Source: Thermodesulfobacteriota bacterium
GTDB lineage: Bacteria; Desulfobacterota_D; UBA1144; Nemesobacterales; UBA2774
Assembly (NCBI GenBank): GCA_963422265.1
Contig: OY729416.1
Span: forward strand, 1,024,001 to 1,088,000
Length of the DNA: 64,000 bases
Direction: 5' to 3'
Both the position numbers and the translations under genes were made by a program. Below the pieces are notes generated by a model that saw only the letters and a list, made by a program, of their open reading frames with translations, ran no database searches and was not told the origin of the DNA. How positions within the stretch are numbered: the stretch's first letter is position 1; each line of letters opens with the position of its first letter. Shown piece after piece: positions 2,976 to 29,133 of the stretch.

Positions 2976-2978
2976 AGT

Positions 2979-4295
2979 CTAATCCTCAAACCCTAGTAGA
3001 CGATCATCTTCTTTCAGGAAAAAGTCCCTATATCCATCGGGAGCATTCAATAGGTTGCCTTGATTATCAAAAGATAGGTTATGCACTTCTACTCTATCAC
3101 TCACAGGTTTAAGGTATATCAAGGATACCTCGTCAGGGGAAATGTTTCCCCTACGAATCTCTATGCTTGCCCTGTTAACCATATAATCACTGTGCGTTTC
3201 AATTAGGAAAGAGTTATTTGTAGTTTTTGCGCTTTCAATTAAAAGGGAGGAAAGTTCAGCCTGCGCCCTCGGGTGAAGATGAACCTCGGGCTGCTGCAAT
3301 AGGAAACTGTTGCCGCCAGAAGAAAGAAACATCCGCACCAGCAGAGGCAATATCTGACTCACTCCATACCCCGTATCCATAATATTAGACTTAGCTCCCC
3401 TTACCTTAAACTGCAATTGGAAAGGGTCCCCCATTGATTCTCCGAAGTTTCTTACCTCTATATCAGTGAACAATCCGGAGGATTTACCAAAACGCACTAA
3501 TTTGTTACGAATTGGTTTCCATCTCTCTTCCCCCTCTCTGTGCAGACGCATCAAGGCTATAGGAACATCACTCCCCTCTGGATCTAGAATCTCCCGAATA
3601 GGATCGTATGTGCGTTGCGGCTTTGAACGGATAGGGGCTAGGCTCACTACTTTTGAGGTAACGCCGTAGGCACGATGCAACTCTGAGACCACGTCCCTTA
3701 ATACATCTTTATGATCTTTAGGCAGTTCTTCTTCCAGCATAAGAAACAGTGGAAAATGTAGGATAGACTCGGTATCACGTAATGACTTAGGCAGTTCAAT
3801 CTCAAGGGGATCATTATCATTACCCGCTCTGTTTTTCAGTGACACTATACAAGAAGGTTTTCCACCTGTAATACCTGAATCAATAGAGATAAAAAAATTT
3901 GGAGAATCAATTTTCGTATGGCTAACAACCGGCTCAGATCCTTTATCCCTCCCCACAAAACGCACGGTGTACTTAGTTTTCGGCGTATCCCAGTCAAGAC
4001 CCAGTTCAAACTCAGTCTTTTTCCCCTTGTTGTTACCACTTCCGTTATTTCTTCTAACAATATCATCGAACGACCCTAGCCTATAGGGTTCTATATTGAA
4101 GTCCGGAACATTCAACCTAGCAAAAGAAATACTATCAATTACATGAAAACACCCTAGAGCAGTAGTTTTCCCCGTGCTGTTCTCTCCTATTAAAAAGGTC
4201 AAAGGACGGATTTCAAATGTCTGCCTGCCATCAAAACAGCGCACGTTCTCAATCGTGAATTTTTTCTTACTACTTATGCGGTTGTTTTTTGCCAT
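2979..4295 (-). CDS. ABC-type/AAA_15 ATPase with DUF3696-like C-terminus
   Basis: Walker A GENSTGKT, signature GYGVSQILP, QQPEVHLHP, IETHS. Confidence 0.85.
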   Translation of the reverse strand: MAKNNRISSKKKFTIENVRCFDGRQTFEIRPLTFLIGENSTGKTTALGCFHVIDSISFARLNVPDFNIEPYRLGSFDDIVRRNNGSGNNKGKKTEFELGLDWDTPKTKYTVRFVGRDKGSEPVVSHTKIDSPNFFISIDSGITGGKPSCIVSLKNRAGNDNDPLEIELPKSLRDTESILHFPLFLMLEEELPKDHKDVLRDVVSELHRAYGVTSKVVSLAPIRSKPQRTYDPIREILDPEGSDVPIALMRLHREGEERWKPIRNKLVRFGKSSGLFTDIEVRNFGESMGDPFQLQFKVRGAKSNIMDTGYGVSQILPLLVRMFLSSGGNSFLLQQPEVHLHPRAQAELSSLLIESAKTTNNSFLIETHSDYMVNRASIEIRRGNISPDEVSLIYLKPVSDRVEVHNLSFDNQGNLLNAPDGYRDFFLKEDDRLLGFED

Positions 4296-7400: not shown

Positions 7401-7680
7401 TAACCCCGTCAGTCAACATCTGATGAAACGCCTCGTTGCTTTCCACTAGACTTTGACTTGGCAAGTTTAATACCTCATGCAAAATCTGCACCCGCGCGTC
7501 TTGTGGAATAAGCGGATTGAGCTTATCAATCGCTGCTTCCAGGCGTGCGCGCAGGACGACGTCGGACAAGCTGACCCGTTCGCGCTCCTGCTCTTCTGGT
7601 GAAAGGTATGAGTAACCCTGATTTTGTAGAAGTTCTATGACGAAGTTTTCAACGTCGGATTCATATATAGTGGTGCTCAT
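4423..7680 (-). CDS. hsdR: Type I restriction endonuclease subunit R
   Basis: [17 protein letters not shown] nuclease motif, [25 protein letters not shown]. Confidence 0.97.
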
Positions 7681-8260
7681 GAACTTTCAGTTATTGCCCC
7701 GCTGGAATCCTCTATTAGGTTTTTGAGGCTCTTAAGGAACACATTATAGCTCTTGCTTCTGTTCTGAGACGAAAGATGAGTACCTATCGCTCGCGAACCT
7801 GAGATCTTTTGGTATTTACCTTTAGTTATTCTCTCTAGTTCAAGAGAGGGTTTGTCTATGTCATCGGGTATGCGGTATTTGCTTTTGTTTGTATGGCTAG
7901 CCAGCTTAGGACAATCATCAAGAGCCTCCTCAACGGCTTTAATGTCTCCAAAATACCAACTTTCCAGCTCCCGGCAGGCGATCCTAACAATGGTCTCGGA
8001 CTTGCCCGCTCTTCTGCATATATCAACTATCCGCCTCTTGACTTCCTTACACTCGCTACGGTCTTGGTCCAGCAGAACAATAAACCTACTGTTTGGGGCG
8101 TTATCCATCTCTTTAGACGTTTGGGCAGTTCCTTTTGAAGGTCTTGCTTGCCTTCAAACACGATATAGTGGGGGATAATGGAGTCCGGTAAAAGACCCGC
8201 AAGCAATCCCTCGAGCATTTTCTGTGCGGACCTTTCCTCCAGAAAAAAGACCAGATTCAC
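7677..8260 (-). pseudogene. DUF4276-family (TOPRIM-like) protein, frameshifted
   Basis: ORFs 8027..8260 (FFLEERS, FEGKQDL) and 7677..8108 (LLDQD, ELESWYFGD) are consecutive parts of one gene; frame break near 8095-8108. Confidence 0.75.
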
Positions 8261-9453
8261 GAAGGATCCGCTCCATCAAAAAAACCCTGTCTCCATAGGT
8301 AACCCATCTGATCGCCATCCTCCATGTAAGCCCGAACCTGCTCATCATCCTTAGCCCGATGGACGATCGCGTAACCGTTTTCTTTCTGAAGCCAGAAGAC
8401 TTCATCCAATTTGGCGGCGTTCAAGAAATCCGGGGAATGTGTAGATACAAAGACTTGCCCCCCGCGGTTGGCATACATACGAAACTCCTCCGCCAATTCA
8501 GACAGTAAGGACAGATACAATTGATTCTCTGGCTCTTCAACACAAAGCAAAGGGTGAGGATCGGGATCGTAAAGCAAAGTCGGGTAAGCGAGCATTTTTA
8601 TAGTCCCATCCGACACGTAACGCGCCAGAAAAGGATCCTCAAAAGTGCCATCACTAAACTTTAATAGAATTCGCCCTTCTTCAGTCTGCTTTGACTCAAC
8701 ACCCGATATTCCTGGCACCCGCTCTTTCAGTTTATTCACTATCTCCTTAAAGATAGCTAGATGGTTGTTGTGCAGGTATTCAATAACTAGAGACAAATTA
8801 TCTCTCTCAGTGGAAAGATGCTCGGCATAACCGGCCTCCTGCTCTGGTCGCGCCTGATTAACGTGAAAATCGGAGACGTGCCAACGCTCAATGAGGTTGC
8901 CCAGTGCAACCGCGGCGGGGAAACGTTCAAACTGGGCAAGCCCTTTAATCGCTAGCAAACCCTGAGACTTGAGCGTCTGCTTTTCGCGTTGCAGCTTTCT
9001 CACGTCAGTAACCTCTTCAAGCTCATTGGTTACGGCTTCTCCCTTGCCGTTTTTAAAATCCAGAAAACGCCAAGGCCGTCCCTTACGACCCCGACGATAT
9101 TTAAGAACTTCTCTTTTCACAGTTGGACGAGGACGACTCCCCTCTAATTCGTCAATCTCAAGCAGGTAAGTTATCAATCGCCCCCTAGTGGTTTGTCTAA
9201 ACTTGATTTCAATCTCTATTGGACCTTCAGAATTCCTACTTCTCACTTCATTAAAGCCCCTGCTTCCGCCAAGTTTGGCAAGGGCGGTTTTCACATTGGA
9301 AGTCATTGCGTTGCGGAGAAAACCGAACACGGAGAATAAAGTGGACTTACCAGCCCCATTAGCGCCAACGAATACCGCAAAACTGGGAATCTCCCGCATT
9401 TCTACTTCACGAAAGGCGCGAAAGTTTTTCAACCGTAGGTATTCAATTCGCAT
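8257..9453 (-). CDS. AAA_21/ABC-type ATPase (partner of DUF4276)
   Basis: GANGAGKS, SDGT signature, VEEPEN, STHS. Confidence 0.9.
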   Translation of the reverse strand: MRIEYLRLKNFRAFREVEMREIPSFAVFVGANGAGKSTLFSVFGFLRNAMTSNVKTALAKLGGSRGFNEVRSRNSEGPIEIEIKFRQTTRGRLITYLLEIDELEGSRPRPTVKREVLKYRRGRKGRPWRFLDFKNGKGEAVTNELEEVTDVRKLQREKQTLKSQGLLAIKGLAQFERFPAAVALGNLIERWHVSDFHVNQARPEQEAGYAEHLSTERDNLSLVIEYLHNNHLAIFKEIVNKLKERVPGISGVESKQTEEGRILLKFSDGTFEDPFLARYVSDGTIKMLAYPTLLYDPDPHPLLCVEEPENQLYLSLLSELAEEFRMYANRGGQVFVSTHSPDFLNAAKLDEVFWLQKENGYAIVHRAKDDEQVRAYMEDGDQMGYLWRQGFFDGADPS

Positions 9454-9588: not shown

Positions 9589-10485
9589 TTAGGGCTTGGA
9601 GCCGTATTCATAATCGCGTCCGATTTTCCAAACCTCTTTTTCTCTAAATGCCTGTATAGTCTGACGACGGGCGGCGTTGGTAACGGCTGGAGCCGAAAGT
9701 CCGTTCTGTTTGATATAATCCGACAGTCGTATAATGCTCTTTCCTTTTAAGTAGGTTATCCGCTTGTGCAACGATTCCAGCAAAGCCAAAGCTAAAATTC
9801 TTTCCATTATTTTCGCCTGCTTCTTCTCGCGGTAATCCCCAAAGGCTTCATAGTATATGCTCTTTTCCTTGTTGCGAATTATGACGCGTGGAAATCCTAA
9901 CTCTAACAACTGAAAGTTAATAATCACTCGCCCTATACGACCATTGCCGTCGCAAAACGGATGGACGGTCTCAAAGTCCAAATGGAACTTGGCGATTTTA
10001 TCTAAAAAATAACCGTCTAGGTCGTTTGAATAGGTAAATAGAACGTTACCGATCATTCGCTCAACATGCTCCGGTGGAGGGGCTATATGAGCACCAACCC
10101 GCACGTATTCACCCTTTTGTCGAAATCGCCCGGCAATAGAGTCGTCAATACCACCCATAAGCATTTTGTGTAAAAGAAGGATGAGTTCCTCGGTCAGACT
10201 TTCTCTTTTAACCTTGCTACGCTTATAATCAATTACCCGAGCTAAGTTTCTCGCCTCAAACACTTCCCGGACAGAGACGTTACGGGATAATTCCATCTCT
10301 AATAAAATTTTCTCCGTCTCTTTAAGCGTTAAAGTGGAGTTTTCTATGGCATTTGAGTTATAGATGCTCTCCGGTGCTTCCGCCTCGTCAATCAAGGCTA
10401 AAAGAGACTCCTTGCCGCTTGCTAAGGAAGCATATTCTTCCCGCAATGCGCTAATTCTTTTTCTAATAGATTGCCGAGTAGCCAC
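9589..10485 (-). CDS. Fic-family protein with C-terminal HTH-like extension
   Basis: HPFCDGNGRIGR Fic motif; SNAIEN inhibitory-helix-like motif. Confidence 0.9.
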   Translation of the reverse strand: MATRQSIRKRISALREEYASLASGKESLLALIDEAEAPESIYNSNAIENSTLTLKETEKILLEMELSRNVSVREVFEARNLARVIDYKRSKVKRESLTEELILLLHKMLMGGIDDSIAGRFRQKGEYVRVGAHIAPPPEHVERMIGNVLFTYSNDLDGYFLDKIAKFHLDFETVHPFCDGNGRIGRVIINFQLLELGFPRVIIRNKEKSIYYEAFGDYREKKQAKIMERILALALLESLHKRITYLKGKSIIRLSDYIKQNGLSAPAVTNAARRQTIQAFREKEVWKIGRDYEYGSKP

Positions 10486-10884
10486 AATGAACAGTTAAAA
10501 GATAGTTTTAAGTTTACAGTTTTGAGTTGACAGCTAACTAACAACTATCCACTTGATTATATAAATTCACTTGAATATGTCAATAAAGCGTGAAGAGAAG
10601 TGTTAAAGAGGGGTATATTCACGGGGTTTTTGTCTGAACTATGAGAAGGGGAATGACGATGGAGACAAAAGAAGCCCTCACCCTGTCCCTCTCCCAGAGG
10701 GGAGGGGTCTAAACTGTGATTGGTAGGATTAAAGGACGGACTTTGGCAACTAATCACTGATCACTGTCAATTATCAAACTAAACTTCATAGTATTCCCAA
10801 AATCATTAAAATCACAGTTCAGATACTCTCACTTCCCTATTCATCAGATTCGGTAACAGAGCATCCCGCGGGCTTTCAAGAGTG
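10426..10884. repeat. Direct repeat copy 1 (fic 5' end + upstream region + palindromic element + hsdS tail)
   Basis: Closely matches 11691-12125 over the fic start and upstream region; the hsdS-tail parts are more diverged. Confidence 0.9.
10812..10884 (-). repeat. hsdS 3'-tail remnant R5
   Basis: Translates TLESPRDALLPNLMNREVRVSEL*, matching the HsdS end TLESLRDTLLPKLMSGDVIIES. Confidence 0.85.
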
Positions 10885-10895
10885 CTCAATACAAA

Positions 10896-11054
10896 TCATT
10901 TTTTCTTAACGGGTGGAGATGGTTCTTGATCTTGAGGTCGAGAAACCAAAGGTAACGGAGGTGGTATTCTTGATGGTCTCGGAGGGGGTGGAGATAATAT
11001 TGTTCTTTTATACGCTTTAACTTCTTCTATTTTTTTATTGCTCATTTTACCCAT
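10896..11054 (-). CDS. Small proline-rich peptide (52 aa)
   Basis: MGKMSNKKIEEVKAYKRTILSPPPPRPSRIPPPLPLVSRPQDQEPSPPVKKK*; starts 15 nt after the upstream gene, preceded by GAGAGG. Confidence 0.5.
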   Translation of the reverse strand: MGKMSNKKIEEVKAYKRTILSPPPPRPSRIPPPLPLVSRPQDQEPSPPVKKK

Positions 11055-11069
11055 CCTCTCAAGCTTATT

Positions 11070-11651
11070 CTACAATATTTGTTCAATAGCTGCAATATCT
11101 GATAACCGAATAAGTAGATGTCCTCTTGCAAACACTTCTTTATTTGCACCCTCTGATAAGTATTGTGGATCGGTGATAATCACAAAATCATCATCTTTTA
11201 TATTATCCGTAAATTCTTGAACATACCCAGATAAACAGACTCCATTCTTAAGATAAATTATATAATATGATTTCGCAGTTACAGCAAAATACGAATGTAA
11301 AACTGTAGGAAATGAAGTTTTCCGCGTAACCCTAAATCTTCGCAGAATTTGAAACAATCTATCTTCATTGGCTAACTGGGAAGATACAAAACCTATAAAA
11401 ACAGGAAGTAGTAATTTCCCAACAAACAGTCCAAATTCAGGTGAGGACATTACGTTTCCCATTCCCTCTACGTTAAAGAAAACAAGCACTTTTTCTACAA
11501 AAAGAACACAACTTTTGTTAATTACAGTAAAAATCACGACATAAATAACCCCTTCAAACCTCTGAGGTTTTACATAACTGGTTAGCAAATAAAACACAGC
11601 TAACGATACAAACCCAGGCGTTAGTAGGTCAATTAAATTTATAACTTGCAA
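11070..11651 (-). CDS. Membrane protein, DUF6338-like
   Basis: LLTPGF N-terminus, 2-3 TM helices, C-terminal IYLKNG..LSGY soluble domain. Confidence 0.55.
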   Translation of the reverse strand: MQVINLIDLLTPGFVSLAVFYLLTSYVKPQRFEGVIYVVIFTVINKSCVLFVEKVLVFFNVEGMGNVMSSPEFGLFVGKLLLPVFIGFVSSQLANEDRLFQILRRFRVTRKTSFPTVLHSYFAVTAKSYYIIYLKNGVCLSGYVQEFTDNIKDDDFVIITDPQYLSEGANKEVFARGHLLIRLSDIAAIEQIL

Positions 11652-11681
11652 AATTGAATTTTTCTCCTTGGTGGTTAACCC

Positions 11682-11750
11682 TTAATCAAAGGAAGCATAT
11701 TGTTCCCGCAATGCGCCAATTCTTTTTCTAATAGATTGCCGAGTAGCCAC
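11682..11750 (-). pseudogene. Truncated duplicate of the fic 5' end
   Basis: VATRQSIRKRIGALREQYASFD* versus MATRQSIRKRISALREEYASLA of 9589..10485. Confidence 0.85.
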
Positions 11751-12125
11751 AATGAACAGTTAAAAGATAGTTTTAAGTTTACAGTTTTGAGTTGACAGCT
11801 AACTAACAACTATCCACTTGATTATATCAATTCACTTGTATATGTCAATAAAGCGTGAAGAGAAGTGTTAAAGAGGGGTGTATTCACGGGTATTTTGTCT
11901 GAACTTATGAGAAGGGGAATGACGATGGAGACAAAAGAAGCCCTCACCCTGTCCCTCTCCCAGAGGGAGAGGGGAAAAGAAAGTCTAAACTGTGATTGGT
12001 AGAATTAAAGGATAGACTTTGACGACTAACCGCTGACCACTGTCACTTATTCAAATTAACCTTCATAGTATTCTAATAATCATTACTTCCCCACTCATCA
12101 GCTTAGGCAATAAGGTATCCCGAAC
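11691..12125. repeat. Direct repeat copy 2
   Basis: Matches 10426-10884. Confidence 0.9.
12083..12124 (-). repeat. hsdS 3'-tail remnant R4
   Basis: Translates RDTLLPKLMSGEV. Confidence 0.85.
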
Positions 12126-12156
12126 GATTGGAAGTATTAGCTTTTTACCGCTTAAA

Positions 12157-12921
12157 CTATGAGGCGAGCTCATTTTTAGATCGCTCTCTATCACTCCATA
12201 GAACAGGTTTGATTTCGTAGTTTTTTAGCGCATCTAATGCATTACTTGATATGTCTCGCCCACTGTCATTGATGAACGCATACGCCTTCGAATCTTCAGG
12301 ACGAACATCTTTTGTATCAACCCAATCCACTATAATTGAATCCACGCTATTACGCGTGGGATTATTGATTGTTTTAATAATTCTCTCTGGAGACTCAAAC
12401 GACTTTGTAATCAGAAAATCAAACTTTCTCGGATAGCCAGATTTTCCAATAAATGAAATGTGCGTGGAATAACGAATTTGAGAAATGTCAAGCCAGCCTC
12501 TAACATCCTCAAAGAACAAGTTAGTTACGTGCGGTTGCGCTAAGTAAAACATATCGCTTATAGCTAAAATGGATTGTATTAGGAAATGCTTTCTTATGGC
12601 GAAGTTATCTGATGTGGCATTAACTTGTAAACAATCTCCCTCTTTTGCAACTCCATATCCTGCAAGGGTTAAGTTTAGCAATTTTTGCCTTTGTGGGCTA
12701 TCCAAGGAACACCCTTCCTGCAAAAGACCTGTGATTGTGCTTCCACCATCCGTTAATAGATAACCTTGATCCGTTTTCTCAAGATATATTTGGATATAAT
12801 CGTTGTTTCTATCCAGATAAGGTGCTGTAATCTCTACCCATTTATTGCCTACGGACTTCCAAGCGGTTTTGTCTCTTAACCAACCGTAATACTGATCAAT
12901 AAGTAAATTCATATCGCTCAT
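12157..12921 (-). CDS. DUF1828/DUF1829-family protein
   Basis: EITAPYLDRNNDYIQIY, LTDGG.T, GKSGY..KFDF (PD-(D/E)XK-like C-terminus). Confidence 0.8.
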   Translation of the reverse strand: MSDMNLLIDQYYGWLRDKTAWKSVGNKWVEITAPYLDRNNDYIQIYLEKTDQGYLLTDGGSTITGLLQEGCSLDSPQRQKLLNLTLAGYGVAKEGDCLQVNATSDNFAIRKHFLIQSILAISDMFYLAQPHVTNLFFEDVRGWLDISQIRYSTHISFIGKSGYPRKFDFLITKSFESPERIIKTINNPTRNSVDSIIVDWVDTKDVRPEDSKAYAFINDSGRDISSNALDALKNYEIKPVLWSDRERSKNELAS

Positions 12922-13364
12922 GTGAATAACCCTTTTCTAATAACAGGAATTGAAATGACATTACAATAAGTCATAAAATCATTGAGCGTCTGAATTTTAT
13001 CTTCTAAATTTGAAAATTTATCAGAAGGAATTTCAAATGCCCATTTTAGACCATAATTTTCTCGATAAAGATGTAAATGTCTTGCCCCGATTTCTTCTCC
13101 GTCAGGATTTATATGGGGTGGACCATCCAAGTCTAGGCGTGCCAACCCAATAACTTGCCTTGCTCTAAGGTGATGATTGCGTTTTGATAAGTTAATTGAA
13201 TACTACGTGTAATTTAGAATAAACTCTTCTTTTTTATCCTCTGACTGCAGTAGAATATGCAATTTGCCTCCCATAACAGGCATGTCTAATTCTTTACTAC
13301 TTGCAATTTTACCCATGGCAAGCAGCGCATCTCCCTCAGATTGAGTTAAAAATATGTCCGCCAT
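12918..13364 (-). pseudogene. DUF6978-like protein with internal TAG
   Basis: ATG 13364 MADIFLTQSEGDALL...; in-frame TAG at 13203-13205; continues in frame to RLDLDGPPHINPDG..HLHLYRENYGLKWAF. Confidence 0.7.
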
Positions 13365-13402
13365 TAAGTTGCCCTCACCTCCCTACTCATCAACTATGGA
13401 AT
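13364..13402 (-). repeat. hsdS 3'-tail remnant R3 (most degenerate)
   Basis: Translates IP*LMSREVRAT*; its TAA overlaps the next ATG (TAATG). Confidence 0.65.
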
Positions 13403-13528
13403 TCACCAATCATAGTAATTTTGTCTGAACTATGACTCTTAGGATGAAATGATGGACTTTGACGACTAACCGCTGACCACTGTCACTTATTCAAATTAAC
13501 CTTCATAGTATTCTAATAATCATTAAAA

Positions 13529-13597
13529 TTACAGTTCAGATACTATCACTTCCCCATTCATCAGTTTTGGCAACAACGTATCGCGCAGGCTTTCAAA
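13529..13597 (-). repeat. hsdS 3'-tail remnant R2
   Basis: Translates FESLRDTLLPKLMNGEVIVSEL*, with many synonymous differences from the intact hsdS. Confidence 0.88.
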
Positions 13598-13727
13598 TAG
13601 AAGAATAGTAATTCAAGAACTATTAACGTTACTCTTAGGATGAAATATGAAAAAGCCTGCTTTTAGATCAGCCTTATAGCGAAGTTCTCAATATCAGATC
13701 ATAACTATCGCTCATTATTACTAGATA

Positions 13728-15242
13728 TTAATAAATATGTTTGAATAGTTCCACTTCTTCTTTAGAAATAACAAATGGCATTATTTTAATCTCTTCCTTG
13801 TCGATTATGTCTGCGTTACTTATTACTTCTTTTAAATCCTTTTTAAGCCAATCTGAACACCATAAATCAACTTTATTATCTAACACCTTTTTACATAGTT
13901 TCTCATCATACTTTTTAGAATCATCCACTTTTAAGGTTATCCTTTGCAACCATATTTGGAGATGACCTATGTTCGGTAGTCTTTCAAACTTTGTTACTAT
14001 TTTGTCAATTATTAATTTTATATCCTTTTGTTCTAATGAATCTACTTGTTTTAATGAACGTATGAACTTACTAAGAATGGCTATTGAGATTGGGTAAGTT
14101 TTTGGGTTCTTCATCGCAATGTCTGTCATAATACTTATAAGGACTTTTAGATTTTTACTATTTTTCACCACTATATTACTGTAAAATTTGTGTAATTCCT
14201 TGGTGACAGTCCCAGAATTCGGATACTTGTCCGCAACATCACTAATAATGTATAACTTCTCTTGTAGAGTCTTTTTCAATCCTGTTTTATTCGTTGTTAT
14301 CCAGTAAAGTTTGTCAGGTTTGATTGAAGCTTTTACCACATTGTTTGACCTTATTGCCTTGCCTTCATTGAGGTTAAATCCCAATTCCGCAAGAACTTCA
14401 GTTAGATTTTTTATTATCTTCCCTGCCGTTTGTGGATTATTAACGAATATTCTGTAATCATCTCGATATCTCAATATCTGAAAATCTTTATCTTGATCTT
14501 GTTCAGAGTTAATTTTCTCCCGTAACTTTAAGTCCGCGTACCCTAATACAATCTCAGCAACAAAATCCATCAATACGCTTCCCTGCGGTATGCCGTTTGT
14601 CTGCCCGTAAGACATTGACTGTATGGATTTATCAATCTGATTTCCAAGTAGTTTCGAATCCGTGCGTTTCTCTTTCGCACATTCTTTTCCGTGAATTGCC
14701 CATGAGATAGAATGCGTGTAAATGGAACCGTAGCAATCGGTTATATCTGTTGTGTATAAGTACTCGTAATCTAAAGCTAACTCAATTGATTTCTGTTCCA
14801 CTTCGTCAAACCAATGCGTGATTTGCTCTGCCTTGTCTGTTTGTTCACTTTCGGATACAACAGGTAAACTGAAGCATTTAATTTTTTCATTTTCTCTAAA
14901 CTTCTCAAAACGGCCTTTTAGTGTTTTCCAATTAGTTTGTTCCGTAATCTTATGGACTAAAGCAACATACAATACTGGATGGATTAGTTGAATGGGCCGC
15001 CAAGCATACTGACCACTCTTGTTGGTCAATAGCTTATGATTAACCTTTTCATAATTGCTTGGTTTACTACCATTTGATGAGTAAAAATCTTTTAAAGGTT
15101 TACCATCCAACTCTTTTGAAATATCTTTTAACAATTCGGAAAATGTAAAATATGGTGGCAAATCAAGAGTGCAGTAACTTTCCTTTTTTAAAAGAAACTC
15201 ACGCGCCTCACTTTCTAATAAATCCAGAATGCTTTTTCCCAT
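13728..15242 (-). CDS. Reverse transcriptase-like protein, Abi family (Abi-P2-like)
   Basis: TDITDCYGSIYTH, NGIPQGS, RYRDDY catalytic motif; helical C-terminus; 504 aa, no intron/maturase domain. Confidence 0.85.
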   Translation of the reverse strand: MGKSILDLLESEAREFLLKKESYCTLDLPPYFTFSELLKDISKELDGKPLKDFYSSNGSKPSNYEKVNHKLLTNKSGQYAWRPIQLIHPVLYVALVHKITEQTNWKTLKGRFEKFRENEKIKCFSLPVVSESEQTDKAEQITHWFDEVEQKSIELALDYEYLYTTDITDCYGSIYTHSISWAIHGKECAKEKRTDSKLLGNQIDKSIQSMSYGQTNGIPQGSVLMDFVAEIVLGYADLKLREKINSEQDQDKDFQILRYRDDYRIFVNNPQTAGKIIKNLTEVLAELGFNLNEGKAIRSNNVVKASIKPDKLYWITTNKTGLKKTLQEKLYIISDVADKYPNSGTVTKELHKFYSNIVVKNSKNLKVLISIMTDIAMKNPKTYPISIAILSKFIRSLKQVDSLEQKDIKLIIDKIVTKFERLPNIGHLQIWLQRITLKVDDSKKYDEKLCKKVLDNKVDLWCSDWLKKDLKEVISNADIIDKEEIKIMPFVISKEEVELFKHIY

Positions 15243-15247
15243 ATTGG

Positions 15248-15358
15248 CTAATTAAATCCTATCTTCACTTCCCCACTCATCAGCTTCGGTAATAGGGCAT
15301 CTCGAAGACTTTCTAGGGTGCAGATTTGGGATTAGTTATTTTCAACCTTTGAGAATAT
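15248..15358 (-). repeat. hsdS 3'-tail remnant R1
   Basis: 15265-15338 differs from 24317-24390 at 6 of 74 nt; translates IFSKVENN*SQICTLESLRDALLPKLMSGEVKIGFN*. Confidence 0.93.
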
Positions 15359-15417
15359 ATCCAGTGCTCTCTATAGGCAAATTCAATTCTCTTATCATCC
15401 TTGAGTTCAGTCATTAC

Positions 15418-16113
15418 TTAGAATACTTTAAAATATCTTTCAAAAACTTCCCTAGTTTCCTCTGAGGTTCGTGATTTTCGAGCAGTATAAAGCTTAAGAA
15501 AAAACTCTCTGACATCTTCATCTTCTGCTATCCATATAATCTGACTGTTCTCAGTAGAAGCTTCGATCAAATCCTCTATTTGCTTATCCAAAAAATATTT
15601 CACATAATCTCTTATTTTATCAATATAACAATGCGTTGATGCAAACGAATCAGAAATAACCAGAGATTGAATTCCTCTTGCAAAATCAAAATCAGTGAAA
15701 TCGTTTATTTCCCTGGACGCAAAATCTACTTCTACAAAGGATGTTTTGTGTTCACAAGAAATCTCTATAACCCAGTTTTCTTCAATGTTTAACCAAATGT
15801 TCTTAATACAATCGCGAGAAATGTTTTCCGCAACCTCTTGCTTTAATTTACTTATGAAATATTTTTCTTTGAAATAAGTGGTAGTATGTTTTTCAAATTC
15901 CTCAAAATCTTTTACAACTCGCACCCTGTCTTGTTTGGCAAAAGCTTCCCTAAGCCTGTGACCTTTTGTCCAAAAGAACATAGTCTCATCGCCGCAGTTT
16001 TTTATGTATTCCAGAACTGTGAAATAAATATAGGCATCTTTGAATCCCTTGTCTGATACTTTGTCAAAAGGCGGTAAATGGTTCAAAGCCAACTCTTTCA
16101 TTTTTCCTATAAC
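15418..16113 (-). pseudogene. C-terminal part of an interrupted PIN-like (DUF4935-type) gene
   Basis: PPF...SDKGFKDAYIY motif; the ORF N-terminus is only the antisense of an FN3 fragment; the matching N-terminal part is at 23975..24295. Confidence 0.7.
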
Positions 16114-16119
16114 AGTAAA

Positions 16120-16270
16120 GTTACCCCCCCCCGCTAAGCCCACTGGTCTCAAGGCGGTGGCGGGCGACGGCCAGGTGACGCTAAGCTGGAATAATCCGAA
16201 TGGCACTACCATCTGGCAGTATCAGATCAAGCAGTGGACTGGGAATAGCGAGGCCGGGAGTTGGACTTAA
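16120..16270 (+). pseudogene. Fibronectin type III domain fragment
   Basis: PAKPTGLKAVAGDGQVTLSWNNP....QYQ. Confidence 0.7.
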
Positions 16271-16343
16271 TGACGTTGACATGCGTATTAAGACTTGTTA
16301 AGATGAATATGCCATATAGTGAACAATCTCACGGAGGGATGTA

Positions 16344-22938
<6,595 letters not shown>

Positions 22939-22975
22939 GGGGGAGATGTGCTATGATTAAAAGAATTAAAGATTA

Positions 22976-23015
22976 AATCCCCTGCTATATCCCCCTTTTA
23001 CAAAAGGGGGGGCAT
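22976..23015. repeat. REP-like palindrome / possible terminator after the autotransporter
   Basis: CCCCCTTT-TAC-AAAAGGGGG hairpin; resembles the element at 35941-35976. Confidence 0.5.
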
Positions 23016-23413
23016 TGTGTAGGGAATGAACTCTCGTCCCCCTATGCTCTATCTGGATTCCTAGTTGAGCTGGTAATGACGTGAGGGAGTGGGGTTCTAT
23101 TGACGGGGTGTTAAAAGCTGTTAGAACTAGCTATTATCTTTCATTTTCCATCTTTTTTCTGTTACTTTCTCGGCACTTTTCTTTAACTTTTCTATTCATT
23201 TTCTATCCTTTTTATCTCTTTTCTTTAACCTGGTAACCACGTCTCTATGAGGCAGGTCCTCATAATAATTTAAGCTCTCTTGGTGGTAAATATGACGTCG
23301 CTAATTGAGGTCTAATTGGAGTTTAACAGGAGATTAAAAGCATCTTCGGCAGACTTTCTGTATATACGCAAGTAATTAAAACGCCTTATCAAGTGTTTAG
23401 TGATACGGGATAT

Positions 23414-23614
23414 GGAATAAAAATGACCGGGATGCCAGCTTTCGGGATTGATCACAGCGACGAAGACATCTGGGCAATCGTAGCATTCCTCAAACGCCTG
23501 CCCGATTTAAGTCCTGAAGAATATCAGCTTATGAAAAATAGCAACATGCTATCGGGTATGGAGGGAAAGTCGGACGTGGATGATTTTGAGCATGATGAGC
23601 ATTATGGGCATTGA
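23414..23614 (+). pseudogene. C-terminal half of a c-type cytochrome gene (inverted)
   Basis: GIKMTGMPAF...DEDIWAIVAFLKRLP. Confidence 0.75.
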
Positions 23615-23653
23615 TTGTCCGGAGAAAAGCTTGGTTAGTAATAAGCGGTCACA

Positions 23654-23974
23654 GTTCTTGGTTATCCAGAAAAGCTCTGAAGAGCTTAGCTCCTCAGCCT
23701 CTTTTGCAAGTCTGGGGGGGCTTGGATTAAACCCTTTTGCAGGTTCTGCGTTGGGGGAACCATGGCACCCTATGCACATATTCTCGTAATGGTGAAATCC
23801 GATTTCTACAAGCTCACCGTCATTGAGCCTCGGTCTCTCAATCCCATATGAGTGTTTTTTTATCGAGCGATGCTTGGCAAAGTCAAGGGTCCACTTTACC
23901 ACTATAGAATCAGGGCTAGTCGCAGCGACGTCGTAATTACCCGAATATATATATGCGGTTATACCCGCTACAAT
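23654..23974 (-). pseudogene. N-terminal half of a c-type cytochrome gene
   Basis: CIGCH haem motif, PSPPRL, ELFWITKN; fused in frame to the PIN N-terminus. Confidence 0.75.
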
Positions 23975-24295
23975 AGAGTCTGCGTCTTCCAATTTAATTA
24001 CACTAAATGTAAAGTTCTCGTTATTTAGTAGATCAGAAATAAAACCCTCAATGTCAAATTTTTTGGTCTGATATTCGTTGACCTGCATTAAAGAACGAAA
24101 AATGTTTGATAAAAAAGAATCTCGCTGTAATGTGAGACTTTTCCTTTTGCAAATCTTTATTTCCTCAATTACCATTTCTGGAATAATAATATCCGCCACC
24201 TGTGCAAAACTTTGCAGTTCTGTTCTCCCTCCCAGAAAGTTTTGGACATCTTTGTTATTTGCAATACTTGTATCAACAATTACTTTGAAATCCAT
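23975..24295 (-). pseudogene. N-terminal part of the interrupted PIN-like gene
   Basis: VIVDTS and IIIPEMVIEEI PIN motifs; begins 7 nt after the hsdS stop. Confidence 0.7.
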
Positions 24296-24302
24296 ATTAC
24301 TC

Positions 24303-25745
24303 TTAGCTCTCTATTATCACATCCCCACTCATCAGCTTCGGTAATAGGGTATCTCGCAGACTCTCTAGGGTGCGGATTTGGGATTGGTTAGTTTGGGATT
24401 TGTGAAATATAGGATTCACCACGCTATTGAATCTAACTAAAGTGTTTATATCAGGTTTAGGTACTTTGATTTCCATTATACTACCATTATTAACATCTGG
24501 TTGGACTGTCCCACTTATTAAACTATCTTTGACGTTCTGAAAATCCTGACTATAGACAAAACACCAAATATAATAATGGCTCTCTTCCGTTGTTTTTAAT
24601 CCCGCAAAGCCCGTTGATAAAACCGTATCGGCAACTGATTGTTTTGAAAATGCGTCAAACATCAAAACTTTCCTGACCCCTCCTTTTTTGGCAAACCACA
24701 CTGAATAATCTACTGGTTGCATATTTGCTCTAGAGGGTCTGCTACCATATGTTATCTTAGTACCCATACCTTGGATTTTCCCTCCCTGCACATCAGCGGT
24801 TGCAATATATGTTTTCTCTCCTTCAAATTTATGTATTCCACTACTCATTATTTTTGATAACTCAGAGTTGCCGAGAGATACTTCCTCCCACCCTTCATCT
24901 CTATCCTCCACAAAGTACTTTCTGAACAGGGTTTGTGCCATGTTTTCTAGTGTTTTGTTTTGGCGGTAGAGAAGTTCTATTGTGTCGTCAAGACTGGATA
25001 ATACTTCGGCAATCGCCTTTTGTTTGGGAAGTGGGGGGAGAAAAACTTCCAAATTTTCAATATCAGACTTACTGATTGATGAAAAAATACTTCCAGATGA
25101 ACTGCTGTTAAATTGATTTGCAGAAAATTTGAGCAAATAAAAAAGAAAATCTCGCTCACCACTTCTCATTCTCAGTCCAGCATTTCCCCGACCAATAGAG
25201 CATTTCTGCCTCGTGAAATTGACATCACCAACTGGTGCTCGCACGCTTAGCAAAAGGTAGTTGGGCTCTATAACCTTCTTGGGACTAGAACAATAGACTC
25301 TTGGGGTAACGTATCTATAACCAAAATCAACTACACCTTGATAAAATGGTAATCCTTCTCCATTTTCATTATAAGTTTCGGATTTTGGAGACTGCCCCAT
25401 AATTACATCCACAACCTCCCCCAACCTCACTTCTCGCCAACCTTTCCTATAAATAGTAATTCCATATCTATCAATGTGCTTCTTCACTTCAGGGCTGGTT
25501 ATGCTCTCATAAGAAACAAAGTCAAAGAAGAAAAGCAAATTGGTATCTTCCTCAAAACAAGTTTTGAGTTTTGCTGCAAGTGAGTAGTCTGCTTCTTTTT
25601 CTTTGATAGCAATATCCACATCAGAGGCTTCCTTAAATGTATCCATAGCTCTTGACCCAAAGAGTACCGCTTCATCAATTTTTTTGTATGTAGAAATGAT
25701 TTTGATAATTTCGTTCAGTTGAGATTCTGAAAGCCCATATTTCAT
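24303..25745 (-). CDS. hsdS: Type I RM specificity subunit fused to an N-terminal minimal nucleotidyltransferase (MNT)
   Basis: LFGSRA....SDVDIA in the first ~100 aa; then two TRDs, LPPLPKQKAIAEVLSSLDD spacer and LRDTLLPKLMSG tail. Confidence 0.92.
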   Translation of the reverse strand: MKYGLSESQLNEIIKIISTYKKIDEAVLFGSRAMDTFKEASDVDIAIKEKEADYSLAAKLKTCFEEDTNLLFFFDFVSYESITSPEVKKHIDRYGITIYRKGWREVRLGEVVDVIMGQSPKSETYNENGEGLPFYQGVVDFGYRYVTPRVYCSSPKKVIEPNYLLLSVRAPVGDVNFTRQKCSIGRGNAGLRMRSGERDFLFYLLKFSANQFNSSSSGSIFSSISKSDIENLEVFLPPLPKQKAIAEVLSSLDDTIELLYRQNKTLENMAQTLFRKYFVEDRDEGWEEVSLGNSELSKIMSSGIHKFEGEKTYIATADVQGGKIQGMGTKITYGSRPSRANMQPVDYSVWFAKKGGVRKVLMFDAFSKQSVADTVLSTGFAGLKTTEESHYYIWCFVYSQDFQNVKDSLISGTVQPDVNNGSIMEIKVPKPDINTLVRFNSVVNPIFHKSQTNQSQIRTLESLRDTLLPKLMSGDVIIES

Positions 25746-26149
25746 AATTCTTTTTTTAGATAGTGATATAAATCTCTGACAATGGCAAAATAGGTTGCGT
25801 TAATAAAAGTGAGCACCTCTTTTAAGATTTCAGGATGATAAATATGACTAGTCTTATTGCGTTTATTTAGAGCTTCTAACCACTCTTCAGCATTGCTGAT
25901 GATTTCTGCCTGAAAAGCTTGTCGTAGGACTTTTTTGGGAGTTCCCAGTTGGCTATAGCCAGAATTTTCCAAATAGTCCTTGAGTGTTTTCCATGAAAGC
26001 TCTATCAATATCTTATAGCTTTGAACAAGAGACATTTGATAAGCTTCATTGTCTTGATTCTGCTCATACTCTTCCTGTCTTCGACAAAAGACTTTAAAAG
26101 ATTTTTCAAAGTTCTGAAACCTCTGTTTCCATCTGTCTTCGTTGTTCAT
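25742..26149 (-). CDS. HEPN-family (HI0074-like nucleotidyltransferase substrate-binding) protein
   Basis: RWKQRFQNF, ELSWKTLKDYL, RNKTSH (R-X4-H). Confidence 0.88.
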   Translation of the reverse strand: MNNEDRWKQRFQNFEKSFKVFCRRQEEYEQNQDNEAYQMSLVQSYKILIELSWKTLKDYLENSGYSQLGTPKKVLRQAFQAEIISNAEEWLEALNKRNKTSHIYHPEILKEVLTFINATYFAIVRDLYHYLKKEL

Positions 26150-26328: not shown

Positions 26329-27504
26329 TTACTCATCCTGATCCTGTTCATACCTCTTAAAGTCGCACCCTACAATATTCATATAGGGAAAGAATAAGAA
26401 TAAACGGTTGCGACGGTTATTAGTCAGCTCTCTGAGAAGGTTTAACCGACAAAGATCATTGAGCATTTTCGCTACGGTTGGCGAAGAAAGATTGAGTTTG
26501 CGTTTTACGTGTGAAGCATTAACGATTGGCGTCTGAAAAAGCTCTTCTAAAAGTCTTAAATTATTACTCGCCCGTCCCCCTGTCCCACTCCTTATTGTTT
26601 CTTCCGTGTTTTCTTTGAGCTTGAGCGATTCTTGCAGAAGGTAAATGCTAAATTTTGCGGTTTTTTCAATACCTTCTAGGAAGAAAAGAAGCCATCCTGC
26701 TAAATTATTTTGTTGTCTGACCGCATCAAGTTTGTCGTAATATACTTGTCTATAAGATTCAAAAAATACGGAAGTGTAGAGTAAAGGCTTACTTAAAATC
26801 TTCTTCTCAACCAGAAAAAGGGGGATAATCATTCGTCCTACCCTTCCATTACCATCCAAAAAAGGATGAATTGTTTCAAATTGATAATGAGCAATACCAA
26901 TGCGGATCAAATCCGGAACCTTGAGCTTATCGTTGTTGAGAAATTTCTCTAAATCCGTCATTAAACCTGGCACTAGATTTTGATGAGGAGGGATAAAATG
27001 AGCCGTCTGTATAGAGCTTCCACCTATCCAATTTTGTGACGTTCGGAATTCTCCCGGTTTTTTCTCTCTGCCACGTCCTTTAGAAAGCAATATCCCGTGT
27101 AATTCTCTCATAAAACGGCTAGAGATAGGCAGTTGTTTTAGTTGTTCTAAACCATGCTTTATTGCTTTATTATACAATTGAACTTCAAGCCAATCATCCC
27201 GTTCTTCTAGGGATATATCTCTTTCTTCTTTGAAAGCGTCTTCAAAGCTTGTTCGCGTTCCTTCTATCTTACTTGAATAAGTAGCTTCCCCGCTGACAAA
27301 ACTAGAAATAAACAAGTCTATATTGGGAACAAGCTTCCCCATAGCGTTGAGTTCTCCAACAAATCGCGAAGATTTCTCAAGTTGCTGAGTCAAGGTTAAA
27401 TTGTCTATCTCTAATTCTTGATTGATGAAACTAGGAGAAAAAAAGTGGTATTTATAAGCTCCTATTTGACTGTAATTGCCGGAAATAAACGCTGATAATT
27501 TCAT
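26329..27504 (-). CDS. Fic-family protein with C-terminal wHTH
   Basis: SSKIEG, HPFLDGNGRVGR. Confidence 0.92.
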   Translation of the reverse strand: MKLSAFISGNYSQIGAYKYHFFSPSFINQELEIDNLTLTQQLEKSSRFVGELNAMGKLVPNIDLFISSFVSGEATYSSKIEGTRTSFEDAFKEERDISLEERDDWLEVQLYNKAIKHGLEQLKQLPISSRFMRELHGILLSKGRGREKKPGEFRTSQNWIGGSSIQTAHFIPPHQNLVPGLMTDLEKFLNNDKLKVPDLIRIGIAHYQFETIHPFLDGNGRVGRMIIPLFLVEKKILSKPLLYTSVFFESYRQVYYDKLDAVRQQNNLAGWLLFFLEGIEKTAKFSIYLLQESLKLKENTEETIRSGTGGRASNNLRLLEELFQTPIVNASHVKRKLNLSSPTVAKMLNDLCRLNLLRELTNNRRNRLFLFFPYMNIVGCDFKRYEQDQDE

Positions 27505-27617
27505 TATTTTTACTTTAACAAGAAAAAGTTAAATATAAAATTCTTTATTTTACTTTTTTGCACAAAAGTTAAATAAGGAACTGTTTATTTCATCTTTTAG
27601 AGTAAAAATGAATTATA
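27505..27617. promoter_or_regulatory. Three imperfect ~40-bp AT-rich repeats upstream of fic (possible operators)
   Basis: Units start TTATTT at ~27505, 27545 and 27585, each with an internal TTTACTT...AAGTTAAA-like dyad. Confidence 0.4.
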
Positions 27618-29133
27618 GATTTGACTTTATATTGTTTAAATTCTCCAAAATCCGCCTGTTAAGCTCCGCCTCTTCTTTAAGCTGCCCCTCAAACTCCGCC
27701 TTTAACTCCGCAAACCTCTCGCCAAAATCAAAGTCATCTTCCGTCTCCACCAAGCCCACGTAGCGACCTGGACTCAGCACGTAATCAAGCTCCCGAACCT
27801 TATCTATCGCAACGGAAGCGCAGAAGCCCGGAACGTCCTTGTATCCTCCCCCATCCTTCCGCCACTGATGGTAAGTATCGGCGATTTTCGCAATATCCTC
27901 ATCTGAAAATTCCCTTGTGCGCCTATTGATTAAATGCCCTAGATGCTGAGCGTCAATGAAAAGAATCTCTCCCAACCGATTTCTGTCGCCGTTAAAGCTG
28001 TGTCGCTTGTTGGAAAGAAACCACAGACAAGCCGGTATTTGGGTATTGAGAAATAGCTTCGTTGGCAAGTTGACGATACAATCAACAAGTCCTGCGTCCA
28101 CGAGATTCTTACGAATTACGTCCTCACCAGAAATTTTAGAAGTGAGTGAGCCCTTGGAAAGCACAAAGCCAGCAACCCCTTTTGGCGACAGGTGATGCAC
28201 GAAATGCTGCACCCAAGCGAAGTTTGCGTTTCCAGCCGGGGGCTTGCCATATTTCCATCTCCCGTCGTTTTGTAGCATCTCGCCGCTCCAGTCGCTATCG
28301 TTAAATGGTGGATTGGCGAGAATAAAATCCGCTCTTAGGTCGGGATGAACGTCTTTCAAGAACGATCCCTCGCCGTTCCATTTCACCTGCGAGCCGTCAA
28401 TTCTGCGAATGGCAAGATTCATTCGGCAAAGGCGGTAAGTAGTTTGATTGCTTTCCTGTCCAAAAATGGAAATATCGTTAAGCCGACCTTGGTGTTCACT
28501 TACAAACTTTTCGCTCATTATGAACATTCCACCACTGCCACAGCACGGGTCATACACGCGCCCCTTATACGGCTGGATCATTTCAACAAGCAACTGAACA
28601 ATTGACTTTGGCGTATAAAACTGCCCACCCTTCTTGCCTTCCGCTAAAGCGAATTCGCCCAAGAAGTATTCATAGACCCTGCCGAGAACATCCCTTGATT
28701 TCGCCGCTTCATCACCGAGCGCAATATCGCCAATAAGGTCAATCAACCCGCCAAGCGAATCCTTAGCGAGATTTTGCTTTGCATAAACAATGGGCAAAAT
28801 ACCCTTGAGAGTAAGATTCTCCTTTGCGATCGCATCCATAGCGCCATCTAAGTCCTTACCTATAGTCGGCAGTTTTGAGCGCGAGCGCAAATACGACCAG
28901 CGAGCTTCCTTAGGAACCCAGAATACGTTTTTTGCGGCGTATTCGTCCTTATCTTCTGGATCAGAATATTCATGCTCGCCCTTGCGTTCCTCTAGGCTAG
29001 CGTAAAGCTCTTCAAAAGAATCAGAGATGTATTTGAGGAATATCAAACCCAACACGATGTGCTTGTATTCCGCAGCGTCAACGTTCTTGCGCAGTTTGTC
29101 CGCCGCTTTGAAAAGCTGAGACTCAAAACTCAT
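27613..29133 (-). CDS. hsdM: Type I RM methyltransferase subunit
   Basis: [18 protein letters not shown]. Confidence 0.97.

Follow-up and report, generated by a model that had tools for sequence, protein, structure and literature searches.

Orphan hsdS 3' ends separate stacked defence-gene blocks in a type I restriction-modification operon

How do defence genes come to be lodged inside type I restriction-modification (RM) operons, and what do short pieces of hsdS lying between such genes record? The question is raised by a 64,000-nucleotide (nt) stretch of a Thermodesulfobacteriota bacterium (assembly GCA_963422265.1, contig OY729416.1, positions 1,024,001 to 1,088,000), called here the window, with positions counted from its first letter. 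The genome is complete in a single contig of 1.78 Mb with 44% GC. On its minus strand the window holds a type I RM operon with hsdM at 27613-29133, MNT-hsdS (an hsdS gene extended by a nucleotidyltransferase domain, MNT) at 24303-25745, and hsdR at 4423-7680. Five cargo blocks occupy the slot between hsdS and hsdR and have orphan copies of the hsdS 3' end, or tail, between them. At least seven defence-type modules are embedded in the operon, and most of the accessory genes between hsdM and hsdR match defence-type models. The answer that we regard as probable is that a single RM operon, belonging to a widely spread family, took up five blocks in this slot and that the orphan tails are scars left by recombination between alleles.

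To locate hsdS ends in the window, we used a protein hidden Markov model (HMM) made from 58 intact hsdS tails of other genomes and a DNA model of the tail searched with nhmmer. The true hsdS tail, the final ~40 codons of the gene (nhmmer 24287-24430), scored 72.9 bits with the protein model and 94.6 bits with the DNA model. Four further tails were found on the minus strand: R1 (15244-15362), which has ~37 codons and an internal stop (52.3 and 80.4 bits); R2 (13529-13606), which is of another allele type and ends in VSEL and a stop (42.3 and 47.0 bits); R4 (12080-12133), with ~16 codons (34.9 and 40.1 bits); and R5 (10812-10886), the most decayed (29.3 and 37.6 bits). The best protein-model score elsewhere in the window was 8.2 bits, and R1, R2, R4, and R5 are highly significant as orphan hsdS 3' ends. 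A fifth remnant, R3 (13364-13402, minus strand), is short and weak, with 9.7 bits by nhmmer (E 0.41) and no protein-model match of at least 5 bits. It is backed by its position exactly ahead of the start of DUF6978 in cargo 3 and by a contig of another strain, X1, that joins R2 to R3; by eye, 16 of 19 nt agree with the tail core. A fuzzy scan of the whole 1.78-Mb genome with a 13-residue core returned four matches, all within the array locus. All six tails share one orientation, and the orphans are direct repeats of at most the last 40 codons of hsdS, each block retaining the last 13-40. An earlier note on this DNA had placed six tails here in a single orientation, and this is confirmed, with R3 as the weak member.

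The differences among the tails indicate where they diverged. Over 13-17 codons, tail pairs differed at a proportion of 0.42-0.82 of synonymous sites (pS) versus 0.03-0.16 of non-synonymous sites (pN). For example, R2 and the hsdS tail show 10 synonymous and three non-synonymous differences over 17 codons, and even R5 has a pN of 0.10-0.16 to the other tails. The exception is the hsdS/R1 pair (pS 0.15, pN 0.05), which is 89% identical over 84 nt with an identical run of 28 nt; R1 had been singled out before as the closest match to hsdS, and it is. Since the tail differences are mostly synonymous, the tails derive from different working hsdS alleles, within which they diverged under purifying selection rather than as dead copies. 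The suggestion that they come from different once-functional alleles is thus upheld.

Cargo genes begin directly behind these tails (all on the minus strand, as is every cargo ORF [open reading frame] between hsdM and hsdR). Cargo 1 is a PIN gene whose N-terminal part (23976-24295; Pfam PIN_4, weak) starts 7 nt after the hsdS stop and whose C-terminal part lies at 15418-16123 (C-terminal part of Pfam PIN_12; PADLOC PDC-S34, 2.1e-10). The earlier note was right to put PIN immediately after hsdS, but its PIN and the ORF at 15418-16212 together make up one gene, split by a 7.85-kb insertion: the two parts are 39% and 37% identical, respectively, to the first and second parts of a single ORF of 249 amino acids (aa) in the related locus L156. 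Cargo 2, an AbiP2-type defence reverse transcriptase (RT; 13728-15242; Pfam RVT_1; PADLOC AbiP2, 8.5e-200), starts 5 nt after the R1 stop. Cargo 3 is a PDC-M24 pair (12157-13364; Pfam; PADLOC PDC-M24A and PDC-M24B, 5.9e-96) made up of DUF6978 (12918-13364), whose start overlaps R3 as TAATG, and DUF1828/DUF1829 (12157-12921). These three start distances had been given before and are borne out. Cargo 4 (10896-11651) is a DUF6338-like predicted membrane protein (11070-11651; Pfam DUF6338 at 6e-6, just below the cut-off) with a 52-aa proline-rich ORF (10896-11054); it has no match to a defence model and no homologue among the 166 comparison loci introduced below, and is a defence candidate by position. 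Cargo 5 comprises Fic2, an intact Fic/DOC protein (9589-10485; Pfam Fic; PADLOC PDC-S04), and an HEC-01 pair (7677-9453; Pfam AAA_21 and DUF4276; PADLOC HEC-01, 3.7e-195 and 2.4e-46) consisting of an ABC ATPase (8257-9453) and DUF4276 (7677-8260). Part of the array is in decay, as seen in the interrupted PIN gene, the in-frame stop that follows codon 53 of DUF6978, and the frameshift in DUF4276.

Two blocks also keep the first codons of the gene that formerly followed them. From the RT stop to R2, ~80 nt are taken up by a 5' fragment of hsdR (hsdR'; 13632-13715, minus strand), the degenerate first ~30 codons including the ATG, which abuts R2 and aligns locally with the 5' end of the window's own hsdR (score 34 over ~75 nt); the earlier note is corrected accordingly. 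R4 and R5 each lead through a spacer and a palindromic element into fic 5' sequence, as had been claimed, with 97% identity between copies of repeat family D8 and 71-91% between those of D10. Behind R4, the stretch 11637-12079 (minus strand; D10, D8) contains the spacer, the palindromic element, the fic2 upstream region, and the first ~33 codons of fic2 (fic2'). Residues 1-33 of fic2 matched 11637-11750 by tblastn (E 1.4e-6), and the D8 copy after R4 is 97% identical to the copy ahead of intact fic2. Another copy of the ~103-nt spacer that follows R4 and R5 lies at 13423-13525 (minus strand; D10, 91% identical to the R4 copy). With hsdR' after RT and fic2' after R4, the blocks therefore carry flanks from both sides of their former position. 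The sequence ahead of R1 has an ATG start and is loosely hsdR-like; no search supports an identity with hsdR.

Two small sequence elements occur in this part of the array. The palindromic element between tail and fic2 is G-rich (10652-10712 in the R5 unit, 11930-11975 in the R4 unit). It is ruled out as a major repeat family by its four copies in the genome, of which the other two are at genome positions 272373 and 1408811; near the palindrome position, strain X1 has a 482-nt sequence. In addition, the same 15-nt string is found at the end of the hsdR' scar (13626-13640) and in the spacer after R2 (13438-13452), 188 nt apart, and may be microhomology at a joint or chance.

Related loci contain cargo of the same kinds in simpler settings. 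We scanned the tail alignment against species-genome and metagenome collections and took 80 loci of the RM family from each; these 160 sampled loci and six Bacteroidota loci make up the 166 comparison loci. They span many phyla, their hsdM is mostly 61-78% identical in aa sequence to that of the window, and the distance from hsdS to hsdR varies between a few bases and more than 5 kb of cargo. Homologues of the window's cargo stand directly behind an intact hsdS in several of them, a point on which the earlier note is sustained for PIN, AbiP2 RT, and PDC-M24: the PIN gene of L156 starts 2 nt past the stop, AbiP2 overlaps the stop in L102, and the PDC-M24 pair occupies this place in L057, L064, and L031, being followed by hsdR in L057. 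Fic2 homologues that are 72-75% identical occur in L011, L025, and L058, directly before hsdR in the last two. AbiP2 homologues are also found behind orphan tails in L162 and L168, and L162 presents hsdR' and a tail, then AbiP2, PDC-M24, and hsdR. Each orphan tail of the window is the native upstream flank of its cargo, brought from an earlier hsdS-cargo-hsdR locus. With the tails being native upstream flanks, and with flanks of downstream genes retained too, the tails are therefore junction scars.

Secondary orphan tails downstream of an intact hsdS were present in 12 of the 160 sampled loci. Seven are among the 80 genome loci (L024, L028, L040, L058, L077, L078, and L087) and five among the 80 metagenome loci (L096, L102, L130, L154, and L166); the latter count is a lower bound, 32 of these 80 loci having at least 3 kb downstream. 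L162 is a further metagenome case at E 0.021. Eleven of the 160 loci with a sole tail behind a short ORF (L014, L015, L029, L030, L047, L054, L069, L083, L095, L105, and L115) were left out of the orphan count. The tail of L083 is not a scar (its hsdS is frameshifted) and neither is that of L095 (a deletion), and the other nine could be scars or broken genes. A plasmid match annotated as 'hypothetical protein' (H10) is likewise no scar but an hsdS gene split by an IS3 element.

The orphan tails elsewhere resemble those of the window in orientation, in completeness, and in their neighbours. Tails detected by the DNA model at E<=0.01 lay on the hsdS strand versus the other strand in 87 and 0 cases in the genome loci and in 86 and 1 in the metagenome loci. 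No orphan tail is truncated at its 3' end, and each passes into the next gene without a break; the 5' limits vary from position 3 to position 93 of the DNA model. An ORF of at least 60 aa starts within 15 nt past the stop in 15 of 27 orphans (four of them the window's) compared with 80 of 138 intact hsdS ends. Orphan hsdR 5' fragments were found in eight of the 80 genome loci (the split-gene locus L010 excluded) and six of the 80 metagenome loci. Such a fragment lies 33 nt from an orphan tail in L024, 4 nt away in L077, and 315 nt away in L028, overlaps the tail in L078, and abuts it or lies within 33 nt of it in L162 and L172.

The scars also part distinct modules in these loci: OLD from AAA_14-DUF4143 in L024; Shedu, DarTG, and RhuM in L078; a RhuM fragment with an IS200-like gene from MNT-HepT in L077; and AbiP2 from PDC-S54 in L168. 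Of 401 Bacteroidota genomes scanned, 100 have the motif and six have it in same-strand clusters, and all six clusters consist of an intact hsdS, then one to three orphan tails, then hsdR. In L168, three orphan tails stand ahead of AbiP2, PDC-S54, and a stretch ending in an IS200-like gene. Comparable multi-tail loci thus exist in other phyla, as the earlier note would have it, and the window's array of four or five orphans is the largest among the loci compared.

As side observations on these loci, IS200-like Y1 (RAYT-like) transposase genes form part of the cargo in the scar-bearing loci L077 (10680-11270), L168 (5947-6408, minus strand), and L173 (5508-6113), with another seen by eye in L028 (7703-8278). 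L058, which comes from a sponge-symbiont metagenome-assembled genome, repeats the layout of the window: a fic2 5' fragment, a small two-gene insert, intact fic2, and hsdR follow one another (13357-14709), and the insert is flanked by short, repeated ORF sequences of REP-like type.

Strain comparison revealed that the tails take part in changes of cassette content. Six public sequencing runs from three studies hold the stretch wholly or partly, and four were compared (X1, X2, X5, and X6). Over R5-fic2, M24-R2, R2-RT-R1-PIN, and the two borders of the insertion, the window is matched by contigs of X2, X5, and X6; those of X2 and X5 are free of differences, and X6 has a few. The bridging contigs come from samples S2, S4, and S5 of two studies; the genome may have been obtained from one of these. 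X1 belongs to another strain and is ~92-98% identical over the compared pieces. Its 62-kb contig runs from hsdS straight into RT, with 24322 joined to 15269 and 9,052 nt skipped, and lacks the PIN cassette; 28 letters at the joint fit both sides, being the core in which the hsdS tail and R1 do not differ. A second X1 joint, from 13554 in R2 to 13379 in R3, connects aligned positions and skips 174 nt. X1 further has a fic2 5' fragment and two tail pieces ahead of PDC-M24, and shows a 392-nt gap in DUF4276. One X1 contig passes from 13396 to 10651 with 482 other letters between them, PDC-M24 being on a separate contig; both presence and absence of the DUF6338 block in X1 are compatible with this. 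Strains therefore differ in cassette content with breakpoints in tails, and the scars now serve as direct repeats for cassette loss or gain, as in X1. This variation, with a junction that falls within the tail repeat, is in line with the earlier note. The further idea that the newest cassettes lie nearest hsdS is compatible with the missing hsdS-proximal PIN cassette of X1, a difference that may be a gain or a loss.

The scars coincide with two islands of conserved DNA, one at either side of the slot. In the tail, pairwise identity averages 0.56-0.74, versus 0.30 upstream and 0.26 downstream, and in the first ~90 nt of hsdR it is 0.56-0.62, versus 0.41-0.46 further in; the tail profile was anchored on the motif. 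We looked for enzymes that could move the cassettes: integrases, resolvases, and Y1 transposases are absent from the locus and its vicinity, and no integrase lies between hsdM and hsdR. The genome has three Phage_integrase matches, at 492, 625, and 1,166 kb (the window spans 1,024-1,088 kb), the search for resolvases gave none, and PF01797 (Y1 transposase) has no match in the whole genome. RecA is encoded in the genome.

We hypothesize that the array grew by recombination anchored in the RM genes. DNA of a related locus with different cargo would pair with the resident operon through the conserved RM genes, and a short-homology or illegitimate joint close to the cargo would seal the non-homologous end. 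New cargo would thereby be stacked beside the old one instead of replacing it, leaving an hsdR'-tail scar or a tail-only scar. Homology-facilitated illegitimate recombination, in which a homologous anchor is combined with a microhomology joint so that foreign DNA enters beside conserved sequence, is known in naturally transformable bacteria from laboratory transformation assays. The proposed addition step would work in the same way or, equivalently, by single-crossover integration of a circularised tail-cargo-hsdR' unit, and its role in defence arrays is what we infer. RecA-type recombination between scars would remove cassettes, and an excised circle could re-insert them.

Several observations weigh against this explanation. 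The insertion step is reconstructed from its products, no joining event having been observed. Neither hsdR' nor fic' can be detected ahead of R1, R4, R5, or the three L168 tails, and tail-only scars are not specifically predicted by the anchored-recombination model. The hsdR' scar of the window is weak by the family DNA model (nhmmer 13647-13699, 8.5 bits, E 0.38) and was missed by a protein HMM of hsdR heads. None of ~25 secondary orphan tails reaches TRD2, the variable second target recognition domain (TRD) of hsdS, although illegitimate breakpoints placed at random ought now and then to yield longer remnants; an assumption must be added for such short-only remnants, either counter-selection of TRD fragments or recombination confined to the conserved islands, and the latter leans towards the docking scheme considered next. 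The conservation profile is inflated in the ~27 nt that were used for locus selection. The R4 region (11747-12278) is bridged by none of the contigs listed, and its junction stands on the finished single-contig genome alone. Within the window's phylum, the tail motif occurs in nine of 120 genomes, with several copies in this genome only (among relatives, it is in four of 41), and tblastn of the 35-aa tail against a plasmid collection gave only 79 places in 77 records.

The main rival is that put forward in the earlier note, in which the conserved hsdS end is a docking site: circles of cargo with one tail, looped out of an array by recombination between tails, would integrate by a single RecA crossover into a related hsdS tail, without a recombinase of their own, and arrays would grow beside hsdS much as they do in an integron. 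The X1 junction, lying in the 28-nt identical stretch with the differing cassette next to hsdS, is what this scheme expects, and so are the tail-only scars of R1, R4, R5, and L168. It also accommodates the near-uniform strand of the orphan tails, with its one exception, and the gradient from R1, nearest hsdS and best preserved, to R5, farthest and most decayed. What keeps it alive is that all remnants stay inside the conserved island and never enter TRD2. Yet the first circle requires a pre-existing array, and pure tail docking does not predict hsdR' and fic2' fragments, some of which directly abut tails. A dedicated site is not indicated either, as the 5' breakpoints of the remnants differ between loci, and the homology on offer in the window is short (~40-110 nt at 67-92% identity). 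In the array part, the contigs of X2, X5, and X6 show neither circles nor alternative joints, a weak argument since contigs miss rare forms. We consider docking unlikely as the source of the array. The label 'integron-like' survives only in part, as the locus has no recombinase nearby and its breakpoints are not fixed.

Three other histories were weighed against anchored recombination. A second complete RM operon with other cargo might have integrated beside the first, with redundant hsdR, hsdM, and hsdS then deleted so that the short hsdR 5' and hsdS 3' ends were left. Composite hsdR'-tail scars are the expected end product of such a process, and L075 does hold two RM systems of the family in tandem. 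The slots of the 166 loci, however, contain no long partial hsdR, hsdM, or TRD-bearing hsdS, the only exceptions being the decayed hsdR of L015 and hsdR genes split by frameshifts, and independent deletions are unlikely to stop within ~40 codons of both gene ends each time, so that we judge this route distinctly improbable. Copying of tails in place from the window's own hsdS end, by slippage or unequal crossing-over followed by decay, could account for the 217-nt stretch shared by R4 and R5 at 97% identity and for the three spacer copies. It is given a very remote chance in view of the synonymous bias of the tail differences, which is unlike the neutral decay of dead copies, the mosaic identity between the units of R4 and R5 (tail 67%, spacer 71%, fic part 97%), and the presence of cargo homologues behind intact hsdS in other phyla. 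An assembly artefact that threads strain variants of the cargo region into one contig has an almost negligible probability. Strain variants do exist, as X1 demonstrates, and 11747-12278 is a part that the listed contigs leave unbridged; against this, the repeats are short and diverged (40-110 nt, 67-92%) and not of the type that causes assemblers to concatenate, the genome is a single 1.78-Mb contig, contigs from S2, S4, and S5 bridge R5-fic2, M24-R2, R2-RT-R1-PIN, and both insertion junctions, and the same architecture is found in unrelated genomes.

How does the array compare with known systems? Integrons are one-directional arrays of promoterless cassettes that are bounded by attC sites and served by the intI recombinase. 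The window shares with them one-directional, promoterless-looking, repeat-bounded cassettes whose content differs between strains, X1 displaying site-bounded cassette variation. It differs in having neither intI nor another recombinase nearby, in that the repeat is hsdS coding sequence with variable 5' limits and is probably not of attC type, and in the additional scars of downstream genes. Islands at the 3' ends of tRNA or other genes accrete in tandem by means of an island-borne integrase and exact att repeats. Here too a gene 3' end is directly repeated at the borders of an insert and the gene remains intact, the hsdS tail and R1 being direct repeats that flank the PIN cassette, but neither an integrase nor exact att repeats were found in the window.

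Cargo genes in type I RM operons are known as single genes. Campylobacter rlo genes are single cargo genes between the hsd genes of such operons. prrC in EcoprrI is likewise a single cargo gene in a type I RM operon (mentioned in Payne et al., 10.1101/2024.01.29.577857, and in PMC12707154). In both cases there are single genes and no described remnant-delimited array, whereas the window has five blocks with orphan tails between them. Embedding of defence genes in type I RM, BREX, DISARM, and Hma loci is the subject of the 2024 preprint of Payne et al. (10.1101/2024.01.29.577857), which, in its accessible part, does not settle how the embedding arose and speaks of a 'genomic sink'. As there, accessory defence genes in the window are nested between hsd genes in the same orientation, and five of its cargo modules (two Fic proteins, HEC-01, PDC-M24, and the PIN half) match HEC/PDC models of Payne et al. 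or other PADLOC models. That work, in the portion accessible, treats what is embedded and not how; in the window, the cargo boundaries carry scars of joining. In its main text, as far as this was available, the words 'hsdS', 'recombination', 'remnant', and 'truncated' are absent. In the RM review PMC12707154, 'remnant' and 'illegitimate' are absent.

Extra partial hsdS genes beside type I RM systems are familiar from phase-variable hsdS shufflons and invertons (PMC7672463, accessible part). As described there, inverton partial genes bear TRDs, are inverted, and come with an invertase; no such combination was found in the window, whose remnants are direct repeats of the conserved C-terminal helix alone and have no means of altering specificity. 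A unit of evolution composed of the 3' region of one ORF, the gap, and the 5' region of the next ORF has been described for a tandem paralogue cluster (PMC2568036). It resembles the tail-spacer-fic2' and hsdR'-tail junctions, with the difference that it concerns paralogous lipoprotein genes in one species and not cargo stacked in an RM operon. Judged by the titles and abstracts available, publications on truncated, partial, orphan, or remnant hsdS deal with inverton and pseudogene contexts only. No description of direct-repeat hsdS remnants that hold only the C-terminal helix and bound cargo arrays was found in the literature accessible to us, subscription journals being mostly uncovered.

The feature is real and recurs across phyla, and it is of the embedded defence island type, not a new class of mobile element. 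Its scars are a sequence record of how cargos join RM operons without transposases or integrases: cargo arrives with the end of the hsdS that formerly preceded it, and differently loaded alleles are stacked. They also suggest an annotation rule: where an ORF begins a few bases past an orphan hsdS tail, it should be treated as a defence candidate, as with the DUF6338-like membrane protein and a number of unnamed ORFs in the comparison loci. A bolder extension, which we regard as doubtful, is that the last ~30 codons of hsdS and the first ~30 of hsdR form a universal recombinase-free attachment for a cassette pool shared across phyla. If that were true, tailed cassettes would loop out as circles and be captured by any related type I RM operon through host recombination, and RM operons of this family would be integron-like collectors of anti-phage genes.

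The remaining genes of the operon lie on either side of the slot, all on the minus strand. The first, hsdM, encodes an N6 DNA methylase (27613-29133; Pfam N6_Mtase, 1.2e-104, and HsdM_N). Between it and hsdS are a SoFic-type Fic protein (26329-27504; Pfam Fic_N and Fic; PADLOC SoFic, 5.8e-112) and a HEPN-type nucleotidyltransferase (NTase) substrate-binding protein (25742-26149; Pfam NTase_sub_bind, 1.8e-29), the partner of the HsdS-fused MNT. The hsdS gene itself (24303-25745) has its MNT domain at the N-terminal end (Pfam Methylase_S, 3.6e-27, and Polbeta), and hsdR is the final RM gene (4423-7680; Pfam HSDR_N, SWI2_SNF2, and T1RH-like_C, 3.7e-126). HsdM, HsdS, and HsdR are thus all recognised by their Pfam domains, and the three genes are open and full length. 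Over the whole operon, PADLOC matched SoFic, AbiP2, PDC-M24A/B, PDC-S04, HEC-01A/B, and PDC-S34, with no match for the DUF6338 protein or the N-terminal PIN half. An ATPase and PIN pair (2544-4295; Pfam AAA_15/AAA_21 and PIN) lies directly 3' of hsdR, outside the hsdS-hsdR slot. The MNT-HsdS fusion recurs in unrelated genomes of the same RM family (L013, L056, L058, and L173), and the HEPN-type partner gene is found just upstream of MNT-hsdS in those loci, with none detected in L058.

The insertion that splits the PIN gene (16124-23975, 7.85 kb) has a GC content of ~60% compared with 37% around it. Its main content is a giant Ig-repeat surface-protein gene on the plus strand (16600-22938), a copy of a gene family of this genome, together with rearranged fragments of a cytochrome c gene that neighbours it. 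The giant protein has 2,112 aa, 285-nt tandem repeats in its gene, and a glycine-rich C-terminal region, and four paralogues of the gene elsewhere in the genome are 85-88% identical over 2.3-3.9 kb. The right flank of the insertion is 97% identical to a locus at 956 kb, with 23412-23655 inverted; this inversion splits the cytochrome c gene, and its halves lie on opposite strands. No transposase is present in 16124-23975, and contigs of other runs extend across both junctions. A run of ~56 C (16424-16479), at which such contigs break, lies upstream of the giant gene and could be a slippage-prone tract controlling that gene.

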